A DNA stretch of 50,219 bases from Shigella phage phi2457T. The stretch's first letter is position 1. Each line of letters begins with the position of its first letter. Location: the sequence record MH917278. One strand, given 5' to 3'. Below are positions 4,860-44,288 of the stretch, piece after piece. Under the pieces are notes generated by a model. That model was not told the origin of the DNA and ran no database searches. It saw nothing but the letters and a program-made list of their open reading frames with translations. The translations under genes and the position numbers were made by a program.

Positions 4860-5494
4860 AATTTGAATGCGTATCAAGTGACGGAACGGGATTTAAGTGG
4901 GGAAAAATCTACGAAGGCGCTCGCGTCAATAACGACAGCTTCGTTGTCGTGGATGAGCACGGTAGCAATGTGAACATCATCCGTCGTCACGAATACCAAG
5001 AAATTTTCCTGCCGTATGGCGGTAGTTCAAAATATATCTTCCATCGAATCGTGGATGGTGTTAAATTTAACGACGTAATCGAAGCAATCAACCAACTGCA
5101 TAATAAAGAGGTAAAATTTATGAAATTCGAATGTATCAGTGATAACACCAAAAAATTTACCGTCGGCAAAATTTACGACGTTCCCTCTGAGCACGCTAAG
5201 CACACGGCTGTAATTACCGACGACACGGGCCGCAACCGCATTGCAACCGTAACTCACAACGGCGAGGGTCTTCGCTGGAATAGCGGCGGCACTAAGTTTG
5301 CAACGTTCGGCAAGAAGCGCAAGCGCACTTTTTGCGTAAATGGCAAGGTTACAGCAAACAAGATCCACAACGTCAAGCCATCGGAAGTTGATCGTAAGCC
5401 AGCGACGAAGTTTGAAGAGAAAGCAGATTTGTCTGGTCTGGCTATCGCTCTTGTTCTCCTGGTCGCTTCTATTTCGCTGATGTTCATCATGTAA
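4856..5494 (+). CDS. membrane-anchored protein with internal tandem duplication of the paralogous small domain
   Basis: MKFECVSSDGTGFKWGKIYEG... repeated as MKFECISDNTKKFTVGKIYDV...; C-terminal hydrophobic segment LAIALVLLVASISLMFIM. Confidence 0.5.
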   Translation: MKFECVSSDGTGFKWGKIYEGARVNNDSFVVVDEHGSNVNIIRRHEYQEIFLPYGGSSKYIFHRIVDGVKFNDVIEAINQLHNKEVKFMKFECISDNTKKFTVGKIYDVPSEHAKHTAVITDDTGRNRIATVTHNGEGLRWNSGGTKFATFGKKRKRTFCVNGKVTANKIHNVKPSEVDRKPATKFEEKADLSGLAIALVLLVASISLMFIM

Positions 5495-8286: not shown

Positions 8287-8516
8287 TGTTTGGTTTAAGT
8301 GAAGCGGAATGGAACGTGGTAAAGCGCGCGGCGAAGGAATTGAATAAATTTGTTAGCGGAATGAAGAAGGAAGATCGCAAAAACGAAAAGATTATGATTG
8401 ATGTGATCTCAACTCATCACAAAAAGGTTGAGCTACTCATCGACCGCTACAAGTTTGTATGGACCGCCGGATATATTGCAGGGCGCGTAGGTAACAAAGA
8501 GGGTGATTACGAATAA
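8286..8516 (+). CDS. hypothetical protein (76 aa)
   Basis: ORF track; SD gggag; TAATG coupling. Confidence 0.4.
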   Translation: MFGLSEAEWNVVKRAAKELNKFVSGMKKEDRKNEKIMIDVISTHHKKVELLIDRYKFVWTAGYIAGRVGNKEGDYE

Positions 8517-9212: not shown

Positions 9213-9440
9213 ATGGAAATTTTTTTATGGATTATCGCTGGTATCGTTATTTTTGGTGCTGGTTTATTTTCTGGCTTCGCACTTGTGGCGGCAGCAATTG
9301 CGATGGACGCGAAGGATAAAACTGGTGTATGGCTTACCTACTCACCAAAGAAGGATCAATGGGAAATGACTGGCGATCTTGCTCACTGCTACTCTAAAGC
9401 TCAGACCCACCCTAAAGGCATTAAACGACGATTATCGTGA
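9213..9440 (+). CDS. small membrane protein (75 aa)
   Basis: SD aaggag; N-terminal hydrophobic segment IFLWIIAGIVIFGAGLFSGFALVAAAIA; followed by terminator. Confidence 0.5.
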   Translation: MEIFLWIIAGIVIFGAGLFSGFALVAAAIAMDAKDKTGVWLTYSPKKDQWEMTGDLAHCYSKAQTHPKGIKRRLS

Positions 9441-9448
9441 TAAATACT

Positions 9449-9471
9449 AACCCGCTACGGCGGGTTTTTTT
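9449..9471 (+). terminator. rho-independent terminator
   Basis: Hairpin cccgctacggcggg followed by TTTTTTT. Confidence 0.65.
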
Positions 9472-9490
9472 ATGCCTGCAATATGGTAAA

Positions 9491-9509
9491 ATAGCACTAA
9501 ATGTTAAAC
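9491..9509 (+). promoter_or_regulatory. conserved intergenic element copy upstream of terminase small subunit
   Basis: atagcactaaatgttaaac preceded by ctgcaatatgg -10-like. Confidence 0.45.
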
Positions 9510-15349: not shown

Positions 15350-15364
15350 TTAGTGTTTAATATG

Positions 15365-16177: not shown

Positions 16178-16196
16178 CACAAAAACACTTTGACGC

Positions 16197-16215
16197 TTTA
16201 ACAAAAAGTGCTATT
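16197..16215 (-). promoter_or_regulatory. conserved intergenic element copy, inverted relative to local transcription
   Basis: tttaacaaaaagtgctatt (reverse complement AATAGCACTTTTTGTTAAA) upstream of major capsid gene. Confidence 0.4.
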
Positions 16216-16220
16216 ATTGA

Positions 16221-16248
16221 AGCCGTGAACATAATCACGGCTTTTTTT
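16221..16248 (+). terminator. rho-independent terminator
   Basis: Hairpin agccgtga/tcacggct followed by TTTTTTT. Confidence 0.6.
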
Positions 16249-19218: not shown

Positions 19219-19887
19219 ATGCACTTACCAAATGGCGCGCAAATTTTCGTGGAAACCTCTCGCGGAGAAGAGATCGAGGCGACCGCTGTCACTAACGCAA
19301 AAAATCCTGTTGCTACAGTTGCATCTAAGGGCGACTTGGCGAAAGGTGATTACGTTATTGTAACTCAGTCAACTTGGGCTAAGATGGTTAGTCGAGTACT
19401 AATTGTTACTGACGCCCAAGAAACAAGCATTACTCTTGCTGGGATTGACACTACTGATGCTCTTGTTTTCCCGGCTGGCGGTACAATGAGCTTTGCAAAA
19501 ATTACTGGCTGGACTGAGATCCCTTGCGTACAGGAGATTGGTCAGGACGGCGGCGAGCAGCAGTATTACACTTATCAGTGTTTGTCTGACGATAAAGAGC
19601 AGCAGATCCCGACGTTTAAGTCTGCAATCTCGCTAACGTACACCTTCGCGCACGAATTTGATAACCCTATCTATCCTATTCTGCGTAAGCTGGATTCTTC
19701 TGGTCAGGTAACTGCGGTTCGGATGTATGTTCCAAAAGCGAACGAGATGCGCATGTGGGCTGGTATCTTGTCTTTTAACGACATTCCATCTACGCAAGTA
19801 AACGAAATGGAAACGGTACAACTCGCCGTATCCCTGAAGGGTGATTTCACTTTCGTTTCATCCGCTCTGGCATCACCTGGTGCCTAA
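19219..19887 (+). CDS. major tail protein
   Basis: 222 aa directly upstream of the G/G-T chaperone pair and tape measure; followed by hairpin. Confidence 0.6.
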   Translation: MHLPNGAQIFVETSRGEEIEATAVTNAKNPVATVASKGDLAKGDYVIVTQSTWAKMVSRVLIVTDAQETSITLAGIDTTDALVFPAGGTMSFAKITGWTEIPCVQEIGQDGGEQQYYTYQCLSDDKEQQIPTFKSAISLTYTFAHEFDNPIYPILRKLDSSGQVTAVRMYVPKANEMRMWAGILSFNDIPSTQVNEMETVQLAVSLKGDFTFVSSALASPGA

Positions 19888-19898
19888 ATCATATCCAC

Positions 19899-19922
19899 AG
19901 GGGGCTTGCGCCCCCTTATTCA
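19899..19922 (+). terminator. terminator-like hairpin
   Basis: agggggcttgcgccccct followed by a weak T-rich tract. Confidence 0.4.
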
Positions 19923-19960
19923 TTTCTGTAAAATCATCGTATCAAGTTTGCACTATTCTC

Positions 19961-19980
19961 TTTTAACAAAAAGTGCCATT
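19961..19980 (-). promoter_or_regulatory. conserved intergenic element copy, inverted relative to local transcription
   Basis: ttttaacaaaaagtgccatt upstream of tail chaperone gene. Confidence 0.4.
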
Positions 19981-20000
19981 AACCAATCAGGAGAAATATC

Positions 20001-20318
20001 ATGGCTAAATTTAATTTCGTTCTTGGTCAACTTCCAGACTTCAAACTTCCAGTCACCTTCACCATGCCTAACGGTGAAGATGCAACGATCATTTTCACTG
20101 TACGCCACCTTTCCAGTAAAGAAGTTCAGGATATGTATGCCAACCAGGGAGAAATGAACGACAGCGAGTTCATTACCAAGATCGCGTCAGGATGGAACCT
20201 TGAAGAAGAATTTAACGAAGAAAATGCGCGAAAACTGGTTCAGTATTATCCTTCAGCAGCGTACAACCTGACAGCAACTTACATCAAGGCTCTCGCCGGA
20301 CACCGCGCAAAAAACTAA
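20001..20318 (+). CDS. tail assembly chaperone (lambda gpG-like)
   Basis: 105 aa ORF between major tail and tape measure; ends with slippery A_AAA_AAC two codons before the stop. Confidence 0.7.
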   Translation: MAKFNFVLGQLPDFKLPVTFTMPNGEDATIIFTVRHLSSKEVQDMYANQGEMNDSEFITKIASGWNLEEEFNEENARKLVQYYPSAAYNLTATYIKALAGHRAKN

Positions 20319-20635
20319 AAAGGGCGGTCTATCTGTTATATCAGAAGCCGCCAACAGAGGAACAATTGCGATCGGTTGGTTTAAGTCTTTCAGACTATGA
20401 AGACGAGGAACCTGAAACGATAATTGGCGACGCTGAAATGGTGAAGGCTTGGAATGTTTTTACATCAATGCTCACTCAGTGGAGAAGTTCAGGCGCTGGC
20501 GCTTATGGTCTTGACTATAATGTTTTGCCTATGTTGTTTAAAATCTATAAAATAGAAGATGAAGAACTGGCATTGCAGGACGTTAGGATCATGGAAGCGA
20601 AAGCGCTTGAAATGATTGCTAAGCAGAATAACTAA
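20001..20635 (+). CDS. tail assembly chaperone G-T fusion via -1 programmed ribosomal frameshift (predicted)
   Basis: Heptamer A AAA AAC at 20309-20315 in frame 0; the -1 frame is open from 20309 through ORF 20366..20635 with no intervening stop. Confidence 0.6.
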
Positions 20636-20658
20636 GCCGCCGTCTGGCGGTTTTTTTG
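20636..20658 (+). terminator. rho-independent terminator
   Basis: Hairpin ccgcc/ggcgg followed by TTTTTTT. Confidence 0.55.
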
Positions 20659-20674
20659 TATATAAGGGGGTTAT

Positions 20675-23548
20675 ATGGTTGATAAGGTAGCAGGTCTATC
20701 GCTTGACGTTGATGTTTCGACAGTGCAGCGCGCCGTCAAGTCATTGAAAGAGTTTTCAAAAGCTAACGACCAAGCCGCTGACTCTATGGGGTCTTTAATC
20801 AATGAGGCCGAGGTTGCAAAACAGAAGGCTAAAGAGCACGCTGAGCAACTTAAGCGCCAGCGCAAAGAGTACGAGGCTGTAGAAAAGGCAATCGATCCTA
20901 CAGTATCAAAAATGGAAAGGCTGAAGATTGCATCTCAGCAGCTTGATAAACTCTGGCAAAAGGGCGTTGTTCCAGATGAAACATTTTTCCGTTTGGGTGA
21001 AATGCTGGACATGCAAAATGCAAAACTTGCTCGCAGCCGAGCCATGCTTACTGAAGAGGGGCAGGCAGCATTGCAGGAAGCGAAAGCAAAAGAGCAGGCA
21101 GCAGCGAAAAACAAAGCGTTCATGGATTCCCTGAACAGTCAGGTTAACGCTATTGGCAAAACTCACGCAGAGTTAATGGAACTGAAAGCGGCTCAGCTTG
21201 GACTATCAAATGAAGCAGCGCCACTGATCGCAAAACTGAAAGAGCAGGGTCGAGCCATGAATGCCGCAGGTATTAGCGCGGGGCAATATAGGCAGGCAAT
21301 GCGAATGCTTCCTGCACAGATTACCGACGTCGTTACATCTCTTGCGTCCGGTATGCCAGTTTGGATGGTTGCCATCCAGCAAGGTGGTCAAATCAAGGAC
21401 TCGTTCGGCGGGATCGGGAATACGTTTAAGGTATTGCTCAGCTATATTAATCCGGTCACAGTTGGTGTTGGTGTTCTTGTCGGCTCTTTAGGTCTTCTTG
21501 CGAAAGCTGGTTATGACTCTTACAAGTCAATAACTGATATGCAGAAGGCTCTTGTTGAGACTGGAGGTTATGCAGGAGTCACGGCTGAAGAACTTGATTC
21601 TGTTGCTAAAAAGGTGTCTCAGACGAGCAATTCAACAATTTCAAGCATTCGTGAGATTGTTACTGAACTTGCCAGTACGGGGAAGTATACGCGAGAGCAG
21701 ATTCAGAACATCACAAAGGCTACCGCTGAGTGGTCGACAGCAACCGGTAAATCAGCAAGTAAAATCATCGCTGAGTTCGATAAAATCGCAAGCGATCCTG
21801 TAAAGGGTCTGGCTAAACTTAACGAGCAATACAACTTTTTAGAAAAAGGGCAACTGACATATATCGATACGCTAAGCCGTACTAAGGGTGAAACAGAGGC
21901 AGTGTCTGAAGCCACGAAATTATTCGCCGATGTAATGGAAAAACGAATGAAGTCGATCGCTGATAATGCTACCCCTCTGGAAAAAATGTGGAACGATATT
22001 AAGCAGTGGGCCTCTGATGCGTGGGGGTGGGTTGGGGATCATACTCTCGGAGCATTAAACCTGATTATTGACGTAGTTCAGGGTACGGTAATTCAGGTAA
22101 AAATGATTCTGGCGAAGGGTGATGAGTACATCTCAAACTTTATAGCCTCTGCAATTAAGGCTACGCAGTCTCTGCCTGGAATGAGTGATTTCGGCGCTGA
22201 TGTACTAAAGGAACAGGAGAATATTGTAAAAAGTTCTCGTGACAACTACGATCAGTTAGCTTCAGAGCTTGATGCCATCAACGCCCGTGTTGAAAAAGGT
22301 GAGATGGGATACATTGAAGCAATGAAGCAGCGCCGTACTCTTGAAAAGCAGTATAGCCAGGAAACTAAGGACGCCATCAAGGAAGAAGCTAAAGAGATCG
22401 AAAAGCGAAACCGTGAACGAAATAAGCAGTCGAAAATTTTACGCTCACCTACAGAGCAATTCGATAAGGAGTTAATTTCACTCAAAGCGCAGCTTAAGGT
22501 TTTGCAGGAGCACAAGGAGATCGGGCAAAAAATATCAGCACAGAGAAAGGCGCTTTTTACGACTGAGGCTACAATTGCTGTTCTTCGAGAAGCTAGTTCT
22601 AAGCGTCAGCTATCTGCGGAAGAAAAAGCACTACTTGCAAACCAAGAGAAGGTTTTAGAGCTTGCGAAACAAAAGGCTGAGATTGGCGATCAGATTGTTA
22701 AGCAGCAGCAGTTGAACGCACTTACCGATAAATCACTGAAATTTGTCAATGATTTGACGGCAGCTACAGAGCAGCTAAACGCGTCTCGCGGGATGAGCAC
22801 TCGAGAAATGGAACGACAAGCGGAACTGGCTAAGATCACCACTGACTATATTAATGCAGGTGGCAGCGAAGGAGATGAAAAACTCCAGAACATGATCAAG
22901 GCACAAAATGATTACTATGCTGCGGAAGATGCCAAGCGCGCTGACTGGTTAGCTGGTGCTGAAAGCGCATTTGCAGATTACGGCGATTCTGCAATGGATA
23001 TGTACGGCAACGTGTATGATATCGCGTCAAGTTCACTTAACGGAATGAGTGATATGATGACCCAATTCCTTACTACAGGTAAGGCAAATTTTGAGGACTT
23101 TGCGAAAAATATCATTAGCATGATTATCAAGATGATTGCTCAGATGGTAATCTTCAATACGATCTCAGGCATGACGGGAGGTAAGACATGGAGTTTTGCA
23201 AGTGGATTGACCTCTAGCGCTTCTGCGGCATCACAGGCAACTCCTACGCCTGCCGTCTCTGGTTTTAGGTCTTTATCTTCAGGCGTTGCCGTTACCTCGC
23301 TTGCTGCCGCTGCGGGTAGTGTTGCAACCTCTGGATTTAACGCATCTAAATCCGCACCGAAGGCAGCGAACCAGTCAGCAGGCGGGACGGTCGTTGATGT
23401 TAGGGGTATGGAGGTTAAAGTTGACAACGGTTCAGATCCGAGAGGAATTTCTCAGGGCGTAGAAATGATGTTCAAAAAAATGATTCGAGAGTCTTGTTCG
23501 CAGGGCGGTGAGGTTTACAATTACATTCAGGAAAAAACAGGAGGCTAA
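20675..23548 (+). CDS. tail tape measure protein
   Basis: 957 aa, Ala/Lys/Glu/Gln-rich coiled-coil sequence with hydrophobic segments near 21400 and 23100; position after G/G-T. Confidence 0.9.
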
Positions 23549-23550
23549 TA

Positions 23551-23904
23551 ATGGCGACACTTGACACTTTCAGTTGGTGTACGCAGGTTCAAGGGGGCGG
23601 CGGCTCCCTTACCACTACCAACAATGACAGATCCATACAGTTTGGAAACGGCTACATGCAGCTTGCATCTTCTGGATTTAACACCACGCGACGCGAGTAT
23701 TCAGTTGTCTATGCTGGGGAAGATTTCATGTCTGTTTACGACTTCTGCAACTCTCACCGCATAAAGCCGTTCGCATGGACTCCACCGGACGGTAAGATCG
23801 GGGTATGGGTAGTCAAGCCTAACAGCTTGGGTGCGAAGCCAGTATCACGCGACGTGATGGAGATTAACGTCACGTTTATGGAGCAGTTTACATCTATGGA
23901 GTAG
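23551..23904 (+). CDS. minor tail protein (lambda gpM-like)
   Basis: 117 aa directly after tape measure; synteny with lambda M-L-K-I-J. Confidence 0.6.
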   Translation: MATLDTFSWCTQVQGGGGSLTTTNNDRSIQFGNGYMQLASSGFNTTRREYSVVYAGEDFMSVYDFCNSHRIKPFAWTPPDGKIGVWVVKPNSLGAKPVSRDVMEINVTFMEQFTSME

Positions 23905-23916
23905 CACCTCATGACA

Positions 23917-23942
23917 AAAGCCCGCCTTGCGCGGGTTTTTTT
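23917..23942 (+). terminator. rho-independent terminator followed by -10-like element
   Basis: Hairpin cccgccttgcgcggg + T7; downstream gtagctgtagaatgg. Confidence 0.6.
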
Positions 23943-23983
23943 GTAGCTGTAGAATGGTTGCAGGCAAACAAGAGGAAAAATCA

Positions 23984-24766
23984 ATGAGCGAAAACAAAAA
24001 ACTGTATGATGAAGAAAGCGGAAAGAGCCTGTTTCATAACTGCCTGCAATCACTGTATCCTGGAGAGATTATCACTCTGATCGAAGTGGATGGTAGCAAG
24101 TTCGGCGCTCAGGTGTATCGATTCCACGGAGAGAATATCCAGTACACTCCAGAGGAAATCATGCAGGCCCAGCAAACTGGAACGCTGCCGCCGAAAGAAA
24201 TTACATTCCGTGGGGAGCAATATGGAGCGCGCCCGTTCGGCATATCCGGGATCTCGTTTGATAGTTCCGGCAAGGCAACAAAACCACAGTTGACGGTGGC
24301 GAACATTGATAGCAGGGTATCTGCAATGATTCGATCATATAACGGATTGATGCAAGCTAAGGTGACAATCTGGATCACTCAAAAGGACTTAATTCAACCT
24401 GACGGCTCAATAGCTGACGGCGCTTACCGCAAACTGGTATACTATATCGAACGCCCGAGCTATGTCGATAAGAGCGTCGCCCGATTCGATCTCACGTCTC
24501 CGTATGATATGGATGGCATCATGATCCCGTCTCGACTAACGCAAAGCGTTTGCTATTGGGCGCAGCGGGGGTGGTATAAAACCGGGAAAGGCTGCGGATA
24601 CAACGGGCAAAACGGTTATTTTGACAAAGACAATAATCCGGTAGACGATCCTGCTTTGGATTTCTGCCCAGGTACGGTAACGGCCTGCCGCCTGCGATTC
24701 GGCGCAAACAATGAACTGGATTTTGGCGGCTGCGCGGTTGCTTCACTACAGAGGAAAAATCAATGA
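23984..24766 (+). CDS. minor tail protein (lambda gpL-like)
   Basis: Internal ATG with SD aagagga; Cys-rich C-terminus (CYWAQ...CGYNG...CPGTVTAC...GGC) like the Fe-S binding region of gpL. Confidence 0.65.
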   Translation: MSENKKLYDEESGKSLFHNCLQSLYPGEIITLIEVDGSKFGAQVYRFHGENIQYTPEEIMQAQQTGTLPPKEITFRGEQYGARPFGISGISFDSSGKATKPQLTVANIDSRVSAMIRSYNGLMQAKVTIWITQKDLIQPDGSIADGAYRKLVYYIERPSYVDKSVARFDLTSPYDMDGIMIPSRLTQSVCYWAQRGWYKTGKGCGYNGQNGYFDKDNNPVDDPALDFCPGTVTACRLRFGANNELDFGGCAVASLQRKNQ

Positions 24767-25497
24767 TTAATGCAAAAATTAAACTTGAAATCATGACTCA
24801 CGCTCAAGAAGAATACCCCCGCGAATGCTGCGGGGTAGTTACCCAAAAAGGACGCGTGCAAAAATACCATCGCATTGATAACGTGCATCGCGATCCTGAG
24901 AATCATTTCATGATGGACGCAGTGCAATACGCATGTATTGAGGATGACGCAGACTCAACCACGATTGCGATCGTTCACAGCCACACAGGAGACGGGGCTA
25001 CAACTCTTCCCAGTGCGCACGACACATGCATGTGCAACGAGATGGAAGTTACATGGATTATTGTTAGCGTACCGGAAGGAGATATGCGATTTGTTAAGCC
25101 TGAGAAATTACCTCTGATTGGTCGACCGTGGTCGTTAGGATCATTTGACTGTTACGGGCTAGTAATGGCGTGGCACAAAGAGCACGGCGTAGAGTTACGC
25201 GATCGCCGATTGAATTTTGAATGGTGGAAACCTGAGTACGGAATTAATCTCTATCAGGATTATTACAAGCAAGATGGATTCGTTGAGATTCCAGATCAGA
25301 ATAACCCATCATTCGGGGATATGGTAATCATGCAGATAGGGCAAAATGTTCCGGTATGGAACCACGCAGGGATTTACCTGGGTGATAATCAGATCTTGCA
25401 TCACGCCTTTGGCAAACTTTCGCGACGTGATATCTATTCCGGCTGGTATCAGGATCATACTGTTTTAATTGTTCGCCATAAGGATCTTAAATTATGA
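24763..25497 (+). CDS. tail assembly protein (lambda gpK-like; JAB/MPN plus NlpC/P60 domains)
   Basis: JAMM-like motif HSHTGDGATTLPSAHD and C-terminal Cys/His region typical of NlpC/P60; ATGA overlap with L. Confidence 0.7.
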   Translation: MINAKIKLEIMTHAQEEYPRECCGVVTQKGRVQKYHRIDNVHRDPENHFMMDAVQYACIEDDADSTTIAIVHSHTGDGATTLPSAHDTCMCNEMEVTWIIVSVPEGDMRFVKPEKLPLIGRPWSLGSFDCYGLVMAWHKEHGVELRDRRLNFEWWKPEYGINLYQDYYKQDGFVEIPDQNNPSFGDMVIMQIGQNVPVWNHAGIYLGDNQILHHAFGKLSRRDIYSGWYQDHTVLIVRHKDLKL

Positions 25498-26093
25498 ATG
25501 ATGTAAAAGTAATCAAATTATCCGGTTCACTTGGAAGGCGCTTCGGCGTCTTTCACAGATTCGCCGTTGACTCTTACCCGGAAGCTATCCGGGCGCTATC
25601 CAGTCAGGTTGATGGATTCAAAGAATATATGCAAAGTGAGGTCGGATCACGTAGCAAGTTTGCAATATTTGTGGATGGCGTTAACGTTGGACACCATGAA
25701 GAGGAAAAATTCAAGTGTGCCAAAGAGATAAGGATTGTTCCGATCCCGACTGGTTCTAAGTCAGGCGGTCTATTCCAGGTTGTATTGGGTGCGGCAATAA
25801 TGGTTGCTGCGTTCTATACTGGCGGCGCATCTCTGGCGTTAATGGGAACAATGTCCTCGTCTCTGTTTATGATGGGCGGCGCTATGGTGCTGGGCGGCGT
25901 GATGCAGATGATTTCACCGCAGCCTGGAGGCGCAAATTTTGAGGTTCAGTCAAGCAAGAATAAACCTTCTTACGCGTTCGGTGGTGCTGTCAATACTACT
26001 GCGGCGGGATACCCTCTCCCGATCCCATATGGATATCGCGCCGGAGGTGGCGCAACTTTCTCGGCAGGTTCTTATGCCGAGGATATGAGTTAA
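25494..26093 (+). CDS. tail assembly protein (lambda gpI-like)
   Basis: 199 aa with Gly/Ala-rich hydrophobic C-terminal half; position between K and J homologues. Confidence 0.6.
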   Translation: MNDVKVIKLSGSLGRRFGVFHRFAVDSYPEAIRALSSQVDGFKEYMQSEVGSRSKFAIFVDGVNVGHHEEEKFKCAKEIRIVPIPTGSKSGGLFQVVLGAAIMVAAFYTGGASLALMGTMSSSLFMMGGAMVLGGVMQMISPQPGGANFEVQSSKNKPSYAFGGAVNTTAAGYPLPIPYGYRAGGGATFSAGSYAEDMS

Positions 26094-26097
26094 AATT

Positions 26098-26122
26098 AAC
26101 CCGCCTTGCGCGGGTTTTTTTT
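26098..26122 (+). terminator. rho-independent terminator followed by TGTATAAT
   Basis: Same hairpin cccgccttgcgcggg as at 23921, + T8, then cgcctgtataatg. Confidence 0.6.
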
Positions 26123-26170
26123 CGCCTGTATAATGAGTCCACCGATAAATAGCACAAAAAGGTAAGCATC

Positions 26171-29100
26171 ATGATTCAAAAAGTGATAAGTGGATCTAAA
26201 GGTGGATCACAAAAGCCGCATAAGCCAGTTGAGATGGAAGATAATCTAATCTCAATCAACAAAATCAAGATTCTTCTGGCAGTATCTGATGGCGAGGTTG
26301 ACGAAACATTCAACCTTAAGCAACTGATGTTTAACTCAGTCCCGGTGCAAAACGAGGATGGCTCTTTTAACTTTGAGGGCGTAACAGCAGAGTTCAGGCC
26401 GGGTACGCAGACTCAGGAATACATTAAGGGCATGGAGGATAGCTCCAGCGAGGTAACTGTAAACCGTGAGATTACTACCGATAATCCATACACGATCTCA
26501 GTAACCAACAAGACGCTGTCGGCAATCCGTATTAAAATGTTCATGCCTCGCGGCGTACGCATTGAAAGCAACGGCGATAAAAACGGCGTTCGCGTTGAGT
26601 ACGAAGTGCAGCAAGCGGTTGATAGTGGTTCGTTTGAGACTATTCTTACTGACGTAATCGAAGGCAAAACAATGTCAGGTTACGATCGAAGCCGTCGTGT
26701 AAACCTGCCAAACTTCAATAACCAGGTTATATTCAGGATTGTTCGAAAGACTCCAGATTCTGATAATTCAAACGTTGTTGATGCGATTCAGGTAAAGAGC
26801 TATGCCGAGGTGATTGATGCCAAATTCCGTTACCCTCTGACAGGTCTTCTTTTCGTAGAGTTCGACTCGAAGATGTTCCCAAACCAGTTACCTACGATCT
26901 CAATTCGTAAGCGATGGAAGATTATAAACGTTCCGTCAAACTACGATCCGGAATCACGAACTTATAACGGAAATTGGGATGGCACTTTTAAGAAGGCGTG
27001 GACTAATAATCCGGCTTGGGTTCTTTATGACTTGATGATTAATCAGCGTTACGGACTGGATCAGAAAGAGCTTGGAATATCTGTCGATAAATGGGCGCTA
27101 TATGAGGCGGCGCAATATTGCGACCAGATGGTTCCTGACGGGAAAGGCGGTACGGAGCCTCGCTACCTTTGCGACGTGATAATTCAGTCACAGACTGATG
27201 CGTACAAGGTGATTCGAGACATTTGCTCAATCTTCCGTGGTATGAGCTTCTGGAATGGCGAAAGCATCTCGGTAATCATCGACAGACCGCGTGAGCCTGC
27301 TTACATCTTCACTAACGACAACGTTGTTAATGGTGACTTCTCCTATACGTTCGCAAGCGAAAAGAGTATGTACACGACGTGTAACGTGATGTTTGACGAC
27401 GAGCAAAACATGTATCAACAGGACGTTGAGCCAGTATTCGATCGTGAGGCGACTCTGCGGTTCGGTAATAACGTAACCAGCATTACAGCGATCGGTTGCA
27501 CACGTCGAAGCGAGGCCAACCGACGTGGGAGATGGATTCTGAAAACCAACCTCCGCAGCACTACGGTAAACTTCGCTACCGGTCTTGAGGGTATGATCCC
27601 GACAATCGGAGATGTTGTGGCAATAGCTGATAACTTCTGGTCAAGTAACTTGACGATGAACCTATCAGGGCGCTTGCTCGAAGTGTCTGGAAGTCAGATT
27701 TTCTTGCCGTTCCGGGTGGATGCACGCGCGGGTGACTTTATTATCGTAAATAAGCCAGATGGCAAGCCCGTGAAGCGCACAATCTCAAGTGTTAGTGCGG
27801 ATGGTAAGACTATAGAGGTTAACATTGGCTTTGGCTTTCCTGTGAAGCCTAACACGGTATTCGCTATCGACCGCACAGACATTGCGTTACAGCAGTACGT
27901 CGTGACAAAAATCGATAAGGGTGATGACGATGAGGAATTTACCTACAAGATTACTGCGGTTGAGTACGATCCTAACAAGTACGATGAGATTGATTACGGT
28001 GTTAACATAGACGACAGACCGACGAGTATCGTTGAACCAGACCAGATCCCTAGACCGGAAAACGTGCAAGTGTCATCTGAGTCACGAATCGTCCAGGGGA
28101 TGAGCGTAGAGACGATGATTGTAAGCTGGGATAAAGTGCCGTACGCAGTTTTCTATGATGTTCAGTGGAGAAAGGATAACGGCAACTGGCAAAATGTACC
28201 ACAGACAGCAAACAAAGAGGTATACGTTGAAGGTATTTACGCTGGCAACTATCAGGTTCGCGTTCGCTCCGTAGCTGGTTCCGGTACGACTTCAGGATGG
28301 TCAAATATCGTAGCTGCGACGCTGACGGGCAAACAAGGTGAGCCGGGTCGACCGATTAACCTTACAGCTACGGATGATGTTGTTTTTGGTATCCGTACAA
28401 AATGGGGGTTCTCTGATGGTTCTGGAGATACGGCCTATACAGAGTTGCAACAGTCACCGGATGGAACGGTTGACAATGCGAGTTTACTCTCTCTGATCCC
28501 GTATCCGCAGCATGAGTATTATCATTCACCGATGCCGGGCGGGAATATTGTGTGGTATCGGGTAAGGACGGTTGATAGGATCGGTAACGTGTCTCAGTGG
28601 ACTGATTTTGTCAGAGGTATGGCATCAACAAACGTTGACGATATCATTGGGGAGATTTCTGTCGATATCGAAAACTCGCCTGGTTACGAGTGGCTTGTTG
28701 ATAACGCAACCGACAACGCGGCGCAGAACGCAGCTAACGCAGAGGCAGCAATAGAAAACGCGCTCGCCAATGACAAAGACGCGATCTATATGAAGAAGGA
28801 GAACGGAAAACGAAAGGCTGAGTACACGAAATCACTGAAACTTATTGCTGATGAGACGCAGGCACGAGTGACGGCGATCGAGCAATTGAAAGCAAGTTTT
28901 GGCGATCAGATTAGCGCAAGCAATAGTGAATTGCGTGAAGTTATCGCAACTGAGACAGGGGCGCTATCTCGTGAGATTGACCAACTCAAGGCAGAGATTG
29001 GTGATGATATTCAGGCAAGTTTGACCGATATCCGTGAAGCCATCGCGAACGAGACTGAGGCGAGAACGCAAGCTGACTTAACGTTAAGCGCGCAACTTGG

Positions 29101-29620
29101 GAATAACGAGGCAGCACTTTCTCAAAAACTTGACTCGTGGAGTAACGCCGATTCGACTGGTGCAATGTACGGCGTCAAGCTGGGCCTTAAGTATAATGGT
29201 CAGGAATACAGCGCAGGTATGGCTATGTCTCTGATTGGTTCTGGTGCGGCTGTTAAGGCTCAGATTCTTTTTGAGGCATCTCGATTTGCAATCATGACTG
29301 GCATGAACGGTCAGACTCAGTACCCATTCGTTGTTGAGAATGGCCAGGTTATTCTAAGTAGCGCGATCATCAAGGATGGCTTTATTACTAATGCCATGAT
29401 TGGAAACTGGATTCAATCTAACAATTGGGATGGGAATAATGGATGGGCCATAAACAAGAATGGCGACGCTTCATTCATGAATGCAACAGTGAGGGGTAGA
29501 ATTTACGCAAATAACGGAGAGTTTGCATTTAACGGAACAAATAACACGGTTCAGATAAACAATAACGGTATCACGGTCAACTTACCTAACGGGGGTCGAG
29601 TGGTTGTTGGTGTCTGGTAA
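26171..29620 (+). CDS. central tail fibre / host specificity protein (lambda gpJ-like)
   Basis: 1149 aa; position after I; FN3-like region and C-terminal coiled-coil with repeated units (ELREVIATETGA / TDIREAIANETEA). Confidence 0.85.
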   Translation: MIQKVISGSKGGSQKPHKPVEMEDNLISINKIKILLAVSDGEVDETFNLKQLMFNSVPVQNEDGSFNFEGVTAEFRPGTQTQEYIKGMEDSSSEVTVNREITTDNPYTISVTNKTLSAIRIKMFMPRGVRIESNGDKNGVRVEYEVQQAVDSGSFETILTDVIEGKTMSGYDRSRRVNLPNFNNQVIFRIVRKTPDSDNSNVVDAIQVKSYAEVIDAKFRYPLTGLLFVEFDSKMFPNQLPTISIRKRWKIINVPSNYDPESRTYNGNWDGTFKKAWTNNPAWVLYDLMINQRYGLDQKELGISVDKWALYEAAQYCDQMVPDGKGGTEPRYLCDVIIQSQTDAYKVIRDICSIFRGMSFWNGESISVIIDRPREPAYIFTNDNVVNGDFSYTFASEKSMYTTCNVMFDDEQNMYQQDVEPVFDREATLRFGNNVTSITAIGCTRRSEANRRGRWILKTNLRSTTVNFATGLEGMIPTIGDVVAIADNFWSSNLTMNLSGRLLEVSGSQIFLPFRVDARAGDFIIVNKPDGKPVKRTISSVSADGKTIEVNIGFGFPVKPNTVFAIDRTDIALQQYVVTKIDKGDDDEEFTYKITAVEYDPNKYDEIDYGVNIDDRPTSIVEPDQIPRPENVQVSSESRIVQGMSVETMIVSWDKVPYAVFYDVQWRKDNGNWQNVPQTANKEVYVEGIYAGNYQVRVRSVAGSGTTSGWSNIVAATLTGKQGEPGRPINLTATDDVVFGIRTKWGFSDGSGDTAYTELQQSPDGTVDNASLLSLIPYPQHEYYHSPMPGGNIVWYRVRTVDRIGNVSQWTDFVRGMASTNVDDIIGEISVDIENSPGYEWLVDNATDNAAQNAANAEAAIENALANDKDAIYMKKENGKRKAEYTKSLKLIADETQARVTAIEQLKASFGDQISASNSELREVIATETGALSREIDQLKAEIGDDIQASLTDIREAIANETEARTQADLTLSAQLGNNEAALSQKLDSWSNADSTGAMYGVKLGLKYNGQEYSAGMAMSLIGSGAAVKAQILFEASRFAIMTGMNGQTQYPFVVENGQVILSSAIIKDGFITNAMIGNWIQSNNWDGNNGWAINKNGDASFMNATVRGRIYANNGEFAFNGTNNTVQINNNGITVNLPNGGRVVVGVW

Positions 29621-33612: not shown

Positions 33613-33640
33613 AAAATCCCCGCAATGCGGGGATTTTATC
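33613..33640. terminator. bidirectional terminator
   Basis: Hairpin atccccgcaatgcggggat flanked by A-run and T-run, between convergent genes. Confidence 0.65.
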
Positions 33641-35423
33641 ATTTGGACTTCAACATTTTTATCTCTTCTTGTAACTCTTCAACTTTCTTTATTGTATCCT
33701 GTAAAGCTCTCATAGTGTCAAGCAATAAAGGAGTTGTATCAAGCTCAAGCCTTTCAACTTTTGGCCCGTTTAGCTCGTGGCTCTCATACATCCTTCTCTT
33801 AACATATAGATTGTCGATCTCTTCTATCTCCTGAGCTATGACACCTCGCCTTACCCTTTCTTGCTCATCATCGTTAAAGATAAAGTTCCTAAATCTCATT
33901 GATTTTATGTTGTTGTATGCAATGCTTGATTCATCATCCTTTATGCTGTGCTTTATATTTCTGTCAGATGCCGGAATCTGTTGGAAACTTCCAGCCCCTT
34001 GCGGTCCAGCGTAAGATATTTGCCCTGAAGCCATAAACCTGAAATGCATTTGCAAACCAATATTGCCTGCCCCATCCCTATCTTGAGCACCTACTGATAT
34101 TTGTGCCCTGGGCCATTCAGGATTGCCCGTAGTCATCATGCCAAAAGCTACGCCGCCAACATACCCTTGACCCCTTGTATCACACGATCCAGCAATAAGT
34201 GATTGATAGTTTTCAGCGCCACTATCGGCAGTGTAAGCATTACCCTGGAAGCATGAAGCAGACCACATCTGGTTGTAACCCATAGATGTTTTCTGGCATA
34301 AAAACTGATTAGCTCTAAATCTATTGTTAGTCTCGAAGTAGTTTGCCCCTTCATAAAATAATAAAGCCCCAGCATAACCATTATCGCTATGTTCTTTTCT
34401 GACGTAAATCCCTGGTGTGGATATTCCATCAGGTGACATAATCATCAATGATGACAATATGGACTGACTACCCCAATTAGAACCGTTCCATGAGTTCCTT
34501 CCTGCCCCTATAGCTCCCGTGGTGTTAACAGTAAGAAAGTTAACAGCATCATTTTCACCTAACCCAATATTTTTTCTTGACTCTTTTTTATCATCAAGAC
34601 CAGCTAGATTGCCATCCTTAGTTAAAAGATTTTCAGCATTGATGCTGTTAGCTGCGTCTTTTGCTTCTTGAGCACTTACCGCAGCAGCATCTTTTGAGCT
34701 TACCGCTTCGTCACGCGCTGCCTGAGCGTCGTTTTTTGCAGAGGTAGCCGTTTGTGCTGCCGTTTGAGCGTCATTAACGTAACCTGACAGATCGCCTTTC
34801 GCGTCATTAATTGCCTGAATCGCCGCCGCTTCTTCTGAGTCAATGTGAGTGATGGATGAATTTTCTTTTTGCTGCACATCGGTTATAGCCTGATCCTTAG
34901 CCGCATTGATGCTACCGACAGCACCGTCAACAATCTGTTGCGTCTGATTCTTGATTGAGTTAGTTTCATCGCGTGCAGCGTTGGCTGCGTCACGCGCTAA
35001 TTCAGCCTGATTTTGCGCAGCTTGAGAATCAGATTTCGCCTGATTCACATCAGCAACTATTTGCTCAAGTTTATTCATATCAAGCTGATTTATCAGGTCT
35101 ATAGCTTCCGCAATCTCAGTCTCTTTGCTTTGATAGTATCGCAGAGTCTCGGCGACGTTTTGAGCTAATCCGTTAACGGTTAGAGAGTCATTAAGTAGGA
35201 TCACATACTTACCGTCATCGGCAGTCTGACCATCAGTAGAGATAGCCTTTAATTCTGTATCACTAACGATATCGCTAATCACAGCCAGCTTAATTGGTTG
35301 CTCAAGGAACACGATAGTTGCACCTACGCGAATAAGAGCAAGCTGATCTTTCCATTTTGTATCGGTTCCGTGAACCGTTCCGTCTGCATCCATTGATGCA
35401 GTACCGCGTCTGTATAAAGCCAT
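33639..35423 (-). CDS. side tail fibre with C-terminal S74-type intramolecular chaperone domain
   Basis: 594 aa; Ala/Gln/Asp-rich coiled-coil repeats; C-terminal region SDRNIKHSIKDDESSIAYNNIKSMRFRNFIFND...RRGVIAQEIEEID matches the auto-cleaving chaperone-of-endosialidase domain. Confidence 0.75.
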   Translation of the reverse strand: MALYRRGTASMDADGTVHGTDTKWKDQLALIRVGATIVFLEQPIKLAVISDIVSDTELKAISTDGQTADDGKYVILLNDSLTVNGLAQNVAETLRYYQSKETEIAEAIDLINQLDMNKLEQIVADVNQAKSDSQAAQNQAELARDAANAARDETNSIKNQTQQIVDGAVGSINAAKDQAITDVQQKENSSITHIDSEEAAAIQAINDAKGDLSGYVNDAQTAAQTATSAKNDAQAARDEAVSSKDAAAVSAQEAKDAANSINAENLLTKDGNLAGLDDKKESRKNIGLGENDAVNFLTVNTTGAIGAGRNSWNGSNWGSQSILSSLMIMSPDGISTPGIYVRKEHSDNGYAGALLFYEGANYFETNNRFRANQFLCQKTSMGYNQMWSASCFQGNAYTADSGAENYQSLIAGSCDTRGQGYVGGVAFGMMTTGNPEWPRAQISVGAQDRDGAGNIGLQMHFRFMASGQISYAGPQGAGSFQQIPASDRNIKHSIKDDESSIAYNNIKSMRFRNFIFNDDEQERVRRGVIAQEIEEIDNLYVKRRMYESHELNGPKVERLELDTTPLLLDTMRALQDTIKKVEELQEEIKMLKSK

Positions 35424-35443
35424 AGCGTAAACTCCTTAAGTAA

Positions 35444-35462
35444 ATAGCACGAATTGCTAAAC
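35444..35462 (+). promoter_or_regulatory. conserved intergenic element copy within an extended inverted repeat
   Basis: atagcacgaattgctaaac followed 27 nt later by inverted half gtgctat; lies between two minus-strand genes. Confidence 0.4.
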
Positions 35463-35499
35463 ACAGATTTTATCATTGTGCTATTGGTCTTGCAACGGG

Positions 35500-35526
35500 C
35501 AATAAAAAACCGCCCGAAGGCGGTTA
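35500..35526 (-). terminator. rho-independent terminator (minus strand)
   Basis: Hairpin accgcccgaaggcggt with A6 on plus strand (T6 on minus) after the primase-like gene. Confidence 0.6.
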
Positions 35527-36519: not shown

Positions 36520-36972
36520 TTAACTAAAAATGCTATTCGTCGTTCCAATATCTTCCTTCTTCACGACTCGCATAAACTTCTTGTTTTTGCATCGCTTCTC
36601 AAGGCACTTTCCGTTCCCATCAAACTTCAGATCGAATCGTAGCCATGCCGCCCGGAATCCTTTGCAACCCTGTCGGCGGTAAGCACGATGCGCTGCTTCA
36701 GCGCCTTGCCATGAAATCATATTGCGATCTTTCCAGCCTTGCACCGTCTGATTGCTAACTTTTAGAGCCTTTGCGCAGGCCGCAGGACCACCGTAATATT
36801 CGATAAGAGCATCCAATCGCGCTCTCAGTCCTGCGCGCGTTTCTTCTTTATGGATATAAAATCCGCAGCGCTGGCGAGGCTTTTTATCTTTACCGCGTCG
36901 TGTTCCGTTGTTACCATTGATGTGACGTTTATCGATTTCACCAGTAGACTCTGCGATACGTTTCATATTCAT
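36520..36972 (-). CDS. HTH DNA-binding protein (Cro/YdaS-like)
   Basis: Internal ATG with SD caggag; segment CAKALKVSNQTVQGWKDRNMIS looks like a helix-turn-helix. Confidence 0.45.
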   Translation of the reverse strand: MNMKRIAESTGEIDKRHINGNNGTRRGKDKKPRQRCGFYIHKEETRAGLRARLDALIEYYGGPAACAKALKVSNQTVQGWKDRNMISWQGAEAAHRAYRRQGCKGFRAAWLRFDLKFDGNGKCLEKRCKNKKFMRVVKKEDIGTTNSIFS

Positions 36973-36985
36973 CTTAATTCTCCTG

Positions 36986-37005
36986 TAGCACTTTTTGCTA
37001 AAAAC
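36986..37005 (+). promoter_or_regulatory. conserved intergenic element copy upstream of helicase
   Basis: tagcactttttgctaaaaac in divergent region. Confidence 0.45.
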
Positions 37006-37066
37006 GTTTACTGTATGCCGTGTATTATATCGTAAACGATACAACGATTCAAAGGATTAAATAGCC

Positions 37067-42755: not shown

Positions 42756-42873
42756 CAATATCATTCATAACCTTACGGGCTGGCATGGTTTACATGCTGG
42801 CCTTTTTGCGTTGTGTCAAATATATTTGAGGGTTAAAATCAACTCACTTGTTCAAAAAATAAATGGTGATATT

Positions 42874-44270: not shown

Positions 44271-44288
44271 TTAACAAAAAGTGCTATT
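44271..44288 (-). promoter_or_regulatory. conserved intergenic element copy (minus orientation)
   Basis: Plus strand ttaacaaaaagtgctatt = reverse complement AATAGCACTTTTTGTTAA. Confidence 0.5.

Follow-up and report, generated by a model that had tools for sequence, protein, structure and literature searches.

In the filamentous phages f1, fd and M13, a strong terminator follows the abundant gene VIII and is itself followed by a weak gene III promoter for a low-copy tip protein. In phiX174, four terminators lie between the capsid genes and yield transcripts that fall in steps, and one overlapping promoter-terminator element decouples the genes on either side (PMC9135205). For phage T1, Roberts, Martin and Kropinski proposed in 2004 that the late region consists of terminator-flanked 'transcriptons' (as cited in PMC11447400), and in the same source, stricter promoter criteria are said not to allow this statement to be extended to phage TLS. 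Because of the T1 proposal, the idea of such modules is already present in the literature in in silico form, and the terminators concerned are annotated. Herein, we describe an analysis of 50,219 nucleotides (nt) of DNA from Shigella phage phi2457T (sequence record MH917278), hereafter called the window, whose tail-gene cluster appears to be divided by two kinds of signals: terminators that carry a predicted host sigma70 promoter within the same ~50 base pairs (bp), and plain terminators.

T1-like phages (Drexlerviridae) often turn up as contaminants in the laboratory and are candidates for phage therapy. They raise the question of how late genes are timed and dosed without a polymerase or sigma factor of their own; no gene for either has been reported for TLS or T1-like genomes (PMC11447400; T1 annotation), the window proteins not having been scanned individually. 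An initial annotation of the window had suggested that a terminate-and-reinitiate module, or else a -35-independent late promoter, recurs in the tail operon. We assign a probability of about 0.68 to the interpretation that composite intrinsic terminator/sigma70 promoter modules insulate and re-set transcription in this region, in combination with plain attenuators.

Results

Intrinsic terminators at the tail-gene junctions

The tail junctions are designated V/G (major tail protein and chaperone), GT/TMP (chaperone and tape measure), M/L and I/J, and the terS junction separates small genes of the left arm from the small terminase gene. The tail junctions were compared among 11 Drexlerviridae genomes of 10 lineages: the window, T1, phSE-2 (Tlsvirus), BrunoManser (Sertoctavirus), Klebsiella phage K50, Erwinia phage Snitter, ityhuna (Warwickvirus), grams (Hanrivervirus), KLB19 (Vilniusvirus), VAC6 (Webervirus) and Ec_L1 (Eclunavirus; called EcL1 below). 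Seven rows of this comparison (V/G of the window, T1, grams and KLB19; M/L of K50 and EcL1; I/J of VAC6) were read by hand, and hairpin energies were obtained with ViennaRNA.

The initial annotation had placed intrinsic terminators at 20636, 23917 and 26098, the last two with a common hairpin, and both statements agree with what can be read directly. All features described here are on the + strand unless noted. The GT/TMP terminator consists of the hairpin GCCGCC-GTCT-GGCGG (20636-20650; -11.8 kcal/mol) and seven T residues (20651-20657). At M/L, the hairpin CCCGC-CTTGC-GCGGG (23921-23935; -10.5 kcal/mol) is likewise followed by seven T residues (23936-23942), and the same 15 bases recur at I/J (26100-26114; -10.4 kcal/mol) with a run of eight (26115-26122). 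A fourth terminator, at the terS junction, is composed of CCCGC-TACG-GCGGG (9451-9464) and seven T residues (9465-9471). These four have stems of 5-6 bp, loops of 4-5 nt, tracts of 7-8 T and folding energies between -10.4 and -11.8 kcal/mol. The hairpin at V/G, AGGGGGC-TTGC-GCCCCCT (19899-19916; -14.0 kcal/mol), lies 3′ of the major tail protein gene, and the T-tract that begins at 19917 (TTATTCATTTC) is degenerate in the window and in T1; it comprises five to eight T residues in other lineages and is shorter in EcL1. All five hairpins have GC-rich stems of at least 5 bp and loops within 3-8 nt, with energies from -10.4 to -14.0 kcal/mol.

Several observations establish that the three terminators of the initial annotation are real and conserved. 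A hairpin with a T-tract is present at all four tail junctions in 11/11 genomes, save for the degenerate V/G tract noted above, and the terminators are positioned in the sense orientation directly past stop codons. The stem arms covary (CCCGC/GCGGG, GGGGC/GCCCC, CCAGC/GCTGG, GGGGAAGC/GCTTCCCC), with compensatory double changes in six of the seven stem pairs. A pattern scan also recovers + strand terminators at 20634, 26098 and 9449. In addition, the T1 GenBank record (AY216660) carries rho-independent terminators at the four homologous sites, at the same junctions: 19508-19527 (GT/TMP), 22793-22816 (M/L), 24972-24994 (I/J) and 8322-8344 (terS). The TLS terminator list includes the equivalents T28, T44, T46 and T49 (PMC11447400). 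No Rfam family matches anywhere in the window at gathering thresholds.

Promoter-like elements nested within the hairpins

At M/L and I/J, the terminator hairpin also includes the upstream part of a sigma70-like promoter. The sequence TTGCGC, formed by the last three bases of the loop and the first three of the 3′ stem arm, occupies positions 23927-23932 and 26106-26111, in each case exactly 17 bp upstream of a -10-like hexamer. This hexamer is TAGAAT at M/L (23950-23955), 7 nt past the T-tract, and the consensus TATAAT at I/J (26129-26134), 6 nt past the T-tract. Contrary to the initial annotation, which saw no clear -35, a candidate for this element is present at these two sites, inside the hairpin. 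The 17-bp spacer of M/L is made up of the remaining stem arm, the T-tract and GTAGCTG. Transcription from these elements is predicted to start at ~23962, upstream of the L ATG at 23984, and at ~26141, upstream of the J ATG at 26171. A third copy of the module, absent from the initial annotation, is found by pattern match at V/G (19899-19934), where TTGCGC (19906-19911) is again separated by 17 bp from TAAAAT (19929-19934). From the end of the -10 hexamer to the ATG there are 28 nt at M/L, 36 nt at I/J and 66 nt at V/G, which leaves room for a leader and a ribosome-binding site. The hexamers at 23950, 26129 and 19929, together with TAAAAT at 9487 of the terS junction, all resemble TATAAT and have A at -11 and T at -7.

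The initial annotation had also noted a TG immediately upstream of the hexamers. This is literally so, in that the TG of TGTAGAAT and TGTATAAT directly abuts the hexamer, but it is one base out of register with a canonical extended -10. The dinucleotide occupies -14/-13 in cTGTAGAAT and cTGTATAAT, whereas TGnTATAAT requires -15/-14, and canonical extended -10 elements at M/L and I/J were rejected on this basis. Among M/L modules, a true extended -10 occurs only in ityhuna and grams.

Could these arrangements simply represent AT-rich DNA past a T-tract that happens to resemble a -10 element? Two scans are in line with this. Octamers like TGTATAAT (≤1 mismatch) are common and not enriched, and are even under-represented, with 29 found in the window and 48 expected, and a scan of the window for sigma70-like promoters yields no more sites than do shuffled sequences. 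The composite pattern behaves differently. TTGYGC-N17-TANAAT occurs three times in the window and is expected 0.09 times, which is ~30-fold over expectation, and none of 100 shuffles reaches three. All three matches (19906, 23927 and 26106) are on the + strand at tail-gene junctions, and relatives have the pattern at the same positions; it is conserved across 10 lineages. An approximate sigma70 matrix, built with classical consensus frequencies, ranks the I/J, M/L and V/G sites 10th, 22nd and 27th, respectively, among the 301,140 positions scored. For the modules at 23921 and 26100, coincidence is already contradicted by these data, and as an account of the whole set we regard it as highly implausible.

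Fixed spacing despite changing stems and leaders

The -10-like hexamers at M/L and I/J form islands of invariance in spacers that have otherwise diverged. At I/J, all 11 genomes share TA.AAT without exception and differ in the bases that flank it, and TTGCGC is located 17 bp upstream in nine of them. At M/L, the hexamer is present in 10/11 genomes (as TAGAAT, TATAAT, TAAAAT, TACAAT or TATGAT), and the 17-bp spacing is kept in about 9/11 by our own reading. By manual inspection, V/G conforms to TTGCnn-16/17-TAnnAT in 8/11 genomes; VAC6 has CATAAT, KLB19 has TTTAAT and EcL1 reads TTGCTC-16-TATAAT. When 15 modules from the three junction types and several lineages are aligned, the TTG of the loop, the T-tract and TA..AAT are invariant despite the changing stem arms. 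By contrast, the loops of GT/TMP hairpins read TCTG, TACG, TTCG or GCGA. The same pattern is evident at closer range among 15 Tunavirus genomes, where the M/L core is invariant in 14, with substitutions only before the hairpin and after the hexamer, and is deleted in one (L006, phage JMPW1). In this last genome (positions 5371-5450), the M/L hairpin is fused to about codon 40 of L, and ~167 nt that span the T-tract, promoter and start of L are missing; this gap could reflect either a real deletion or an assembly error.

The manner in which spacing is maintained is informative. T-runs that vary from five to nine residues are compensated by gaps of eight to five, such that the distance from TTG to the -10 is held, while the distance from the -10 to the ATG ranges across genomes from 20 to 34 nt at M/L and from 29 to 66 nt at V/G. 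Because the 17-bp spacing is fixed and the ATG distance is variable, the hexamer is placed relative to the hairpin DNA rather than to the start codon. This argues for a promoter acting at the DNA level over an element of the RNA leader.

These data bear directly on the possibility that only the terminators function, attenuating one long late transcript, with TAnAAT acting, for example, as an A/U-rich signal in the leader that affects translation or RNA decay, or as a modulator of termination efficiency. Consistent with such a scheme, terminators are the sole elements annotated at the T1 junctions, several late terminators clearly lack promoters (15364, 17236, 17572 and 20634), and the I/J hexamer resides at a near-fixed 34-36 nt from the ATG in nine genomes. 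Moreover, the TLS authors saw no convincing promoters at these places (PMC11447400). However, the hexamer retains exactly the positions that matter for sigma70 recognition (T-12, A-11, A-9/-8 and T-7), the TTG is preserved in the loop at its fixed distance while the stems change, and one genome retains TATAAT after the hairpin has been lost, as described next. Therefore, we consider it improbable that terminators are the only functional elements.

The genome in question, the Tunavirus L016 (IMG/VR UViG_2974611450), is a natural variant with an I/J junction in which the 3′ arm and loop of the hairpin are replaced (CCCGCTCCGCATTCA) and the T-tract and TATAAT are intact. This variant indicates that the terminator and promoter halves are separable. 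It also belongs among the points that weigh against composite modules, since it shows that at least one genome can dispense with both the terminator and the -35. Other points of this kind are as follows. The -35 matches TTGACA at only three of six positions, those of the TTG, and is embedded in GC-rich DNA. In VAC6 and EcL1 the TTG is absent at I/J and the -10 is kept, and the KLB19 M/L junction runs straight into the ribosome-binding site with the whole promoter missing. The T1 record has no promoter annotated at these junctions, and a 2024 TLS re-annotation that allowed up to two mismatches called none of the sites promoters (PMC11447400). The 11 genomes are relatives of each other, so that the counts given above do not represent independent events. 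Finally, we found no transcript maps, 5′ or 3′ ends, or start-site data for T1-like phages in the literature searched, in which the sole RNA-seq paper to mention Drexlerviridae profiles a T5-like phage.

A plain terminator precedes the tape-measure gene

The third site of the initial annotation, with a -10-like 'TGTATATAA' (reported as 'tgtatataagg') after the 20636 terminator, differs from M/L and I/J. There, TATATA (20659-20664) is directly followed by the Shine-Dalgarno sequence GGGGG (20666-20670) of the tape-measure gene, whose ATG is at 20675. The T-tract is only 17 nt from the ATG in the window, and 13-23 nt in 11/11 genomes, and this interval is filled by GGAGG or GGGGG. None of the 11 genomes has a conserved -10-like hexamer at GT/TMP, and TATATA is absent from nine other lineages. 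A promoter at 20659 was thus rejected as not credible: space is lacking, the element and the ribosome-binding site overlap, and conservation is absent. A start ~7 nt downstream would fall past the ribosome-binding site; chance is the best description of this TATATA, and of this element only. GT/TMP is therefore a plain terminator or attenuator with no nested promoter, and so the tape-measure and M genes should be reached by terminator read-through. The proposal of a repeated module is thus upheld by sequence and comparison at M/L (23921-23955) and I/J (26100-26134), gains the V/G copy and a variant at the terS junction (9451-9492), and is lost at 20636.

The seventh-best sigma70-like site of the window (TTGCCT, 17 bp, TAAAAT; 20525-20553) is located ~85 nt upstream of the 20636 terminator, inside the frameshift open reading frame (ORF) of the chaperone gene, and is probably fortuitous.

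A different form of the module at the terS junction

The initial annotation had pointed to 'ctgcaatatgg' near 9449. This sequence is present (9477-9487), but the conserved element is instead the extended -10 TGgTAAAAT at 9484-9492, 12 nt past the T-tract. TGnTAnAAT is found at this junction in six of eight genomes, including C119 (TGgTACAAT); KpNIH2 has TGaTATACT and vojen is one base off. The corresponding -35 position falls on the T-tract, and no -35 match is present. The extended -10 overlaps a copy of a direct repeat (AATAGCACtaaatgttaaac, 9490-9509). The segment from 9440 to 9496, which spans the terminator and the downstream promoter region, is 84-90% identical over 47-57 nt in Drexlerviridae of Klebsiella, Enterobacter and Vibrio, in which the genes that flank it in the window have no match at the DNA level.

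This junction is relevant to another explanation, in which TAnAAT is read in a -35-independent manner by a modified or T1-assisted host polymerase, with the loop TTG incidental. The predicted promoter here is an extended -10 with no -35, and the weak -35 match of the other modules and the retention of the I/J -10 without TTG in VAC6 and EcL1 point in the same direction. Late timing also needs some source; the phage encodes several small helix-turn-helix proteins, and three late -10 elements are closely followed by copies of the direct repeat, at 9490, 19962-19985 and 26148. Nevertheless, no sigma-like or RNA polymerase gene has been reported for T1 or TLS, and no sequence feature requires a factor. 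A T4-type late promoter is not matched: the boxes read TAGAATGG and TATAATGA, plain TATAAT-like hexamers rather than TATAAATA, and no gp55-like sigma has been reported for TLS or T1. In addition, TTG and its 17-bp spacing are conserved beyond what a hairpin needs, being kept even where stems flip, and so the -35-independent option raised by the initial annotation is not needed, although VAC6 and EcL1 lend it something. Phage-factor-dependent late promoters are, in our judgment, unlikely.

Genomic setting of the modules

Across positions 20000-27000, the window is 99.6% identical to Shigella phages Sfin-1, Sfin-4 and Sfin-5, T1-like siphophages, and 91-97% identical to other Tunavirus genomes. 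T1 (AY216660) has the same genome type, with ~90% identity and a syntenic gene order. The genes between which the signals lie are those for the major tail protein V (19219-19887), the tape-measure chaperones G/GT (20001-20318 and 20366-20635), the tape-measure protein (TMP, 20675-23548), M (23551-23904), L (23984-24766, with the start corrected to 23984), K (24763-25497), I (25494-26093) and J (26171-29620). Late-region terminators on the + strand are at 15364, 16219, 17236, 17572, 20634, 23921 and 26100. Those at 15364, 17236, 17572 and 20634 are plain, with the T-tract leading into the next ribosome-binding site, and the predicted overlapping promoters within this ladder are at 19906, 23927 and 26106.

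Two further sites combine related signals in other ways. At 16190-16244, ahead of the major capsid gene, a sigma70-like promoter (TTGACG, 16 bp, TGcTATTAT) ends 1 nt before a terminator-like hairpin (16219-16244). A T1 promoter is annotated at the homologous place, and the -10 is within an inverted direct repeat. Because the predicted start is inside the 5′ arm, transcripts from this promoter might escape a hairpin that stops those from upstream. At 42777-42840, ahead of the lysis genes, a terminator (hairpin and TTTTT) is followed by TTGTGT, 17 bp and TAAAAT, with the elements adjacent rather than nested.

A direct repeat associated with early and late promoter-like elements

A 21-nt direct repeat, aaATAGCACnnnTTGnTAAAA, is known from TLS, T1, Rtp and Rogue1 (PMC11447400), and ~20 copies, oriented with transcription, are present in the window. 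One copy (AATAGCAC-AAAAAGGTAA, 26148-26166) is in the predicted 5′ leader of J and includes its Shine-Dalgarno sequence. It is kept in 9/11 genomes and corresponds to TLS DR8, which comes directly after terminator T49 (PMC11447400). A text search of the literature for AATAGCAC returned unrelated primer matches only. The repeat is an element class separate from the nested modules, lying downstream of the -10 in late modules and upstream of one in early regions.

The repeat contains the palindrome TAGCA-N5-TGCTA, and in 16 of 20 copies a -10-like hexamer occurs exactly 22 nt further on, with none at offsets of 16-21. These copies are at 1054, 1794, 2815, 4298, 5845, 6365, 7660, 39495 and 40518 on the + strand and at 44287, 46449, 46949, 47464, 48815, 49232 and 50134 on the - strand. 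A true TGn is present in 7/16 of these -10 elements, and a stable hairpin (median z -4.2) is found in the spacer or around the -10. The TLS paper mentions the repeat and not its 22-nt spacing to a -10 (PMC11447400). The arrangement looks like a second, early class of promoters, with the repeat centred near -42 and a nested terminator-like hairpin. Three predicted late -10 elements are closely followed by copies or half-copies (9490-9509, 19962-19985 in inverted form, and 26148-26166), which lie in an operator or leader position. A single factor that binds the repeat might have opposite effects on the early and late classes of promoter. A Pfam search with three candidate regulators gave only a sub-threshold P22 Cro-like helix-turn-helix match (the protein encoded by 36520-37041) and identified no repeat binder. 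Elsewhere, at 35443-35485, two copies on opposite strands face one another; they lie beside a - strand terminator (35508-35525), in the interval that separates the primase gene from a large - strand ORF (33639-35423).

Discussion

The junctions of this tail-gene cluster have a defined anatomy that occurs more often than chance predicts and has been conserved, with compensatory changes in the stems and a constant spacing. From this anatomy we infer termination and initiation, their efficiencies and a stoichiometric purpose. On this interpretation, the late region would consist of successive units divided by composite modules and plain terminators. In a composite module (V/G, M/L and I/J, and in looser form at 9451), the terminator and a host sigma70 promoter would share the same ~50 bp: the loop and the start of the 3′ arm would provide the -35 TTGCGC, the spacer would consist of what is left of the arm together with the T-tract and 5-8 variable bases, and TAnAAT would be the -10. 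Incoming transcripts would stop in the T-tract, and about 20 nt later new ones would begin, each with a short leader and the next gene's ribosome-binding site. At plain terminators, such as that at 20636-20657, downstream genes would be expressed by read-through only. Each weak promoter might also be shielded by its terminator from occlusion by upstream traffic.

In lambda-like tails, the major tail protein is abundant and the tape measure is required in low copy number. Expression in this phage would accordingly be stepped down past abundant products (the major tail protein and the chaperones) and re-set for the tip genes L-K-I and for J. The placement of the signals fits such a scheme, with a predicted stop after the major tail protein, a further one before the tape measure, and putative weak promoters before L-K-I and the long J gene. 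Tuning of stoichiometry would fit both this placement, behind the major tail protein and ahead of tip proteins needed in few copies, and the precedent of phiX174.

A more elaborate version of the mechanism can be envisioned in which termination and re-initiation are physically coupled. Because release would occur ~20 nt upstream of the new start, with the polymerase already over the -35 and -10, the same enzyme could take up sigma70 again and begin a new transcript while still on the DNA. Post-termination recycling and re-initiation by Escherichia coli RNA polymerase have been observed in single-molecule work (PMC6978380, PMC6978322, PMC10372574). We consider coupling of this type doubtful for the modules described here. 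If it were to operate, downstream output would scale with upstream traffic rather than with free polymerase, giving fixed ratios along the tail operon, and the modules would be a natural, family-wide use of polymerase recycling.

If the composite modules work as we propose, they would explain how the host polymerase can express a structural region of 20 kb and why the tape-measure and M genes depend on read-through, and they would point to where the late switch may lie. They would also provide compact (~50 bp) natural insulator parts in which a terminator and a promoter are combined.

How do these modules compare with systems described previously? With regard to T1, the literature consulted was not seen to mention a -35 in the loop, a constant 17-bp spacing, a -10 that is invariant across the family or a division into promoter-bearing and promoter-less terminators. 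What is added here is family-wide comparative support together with these features of the loop -35 and the two terminator classes. The likeness to phiX174 extends to the alternation of genes and terminators in a cluster of virion genes, the overlapping promoter and terminator, and the use of host sigma70 polymerase, here as judged by sequence. In phiX174, the stepwise transcript levels, which arise from partial read-through, are thought to match capsid stoichiometry (PMC9135205). That system is transcript-mapped and has one overlapping element, whereas this phage would have three or four, predicted from sequence and built to a common template with TTG in the loop and the T-tract as spacer. In f1, fd and M13, which belong to an unrelated phage family, the terminator and promoter are adjacent rather than nested. 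Since phiX174 already illustrates the general principle and a proposal of this kind exists for T1, what is gained is detail and testability rather than a new concept. The tail junctions of phi2457T are thus a well-conserved example of a known phage transcription architecture, largely anticipated for T1, and are tidy but largely ordinary.

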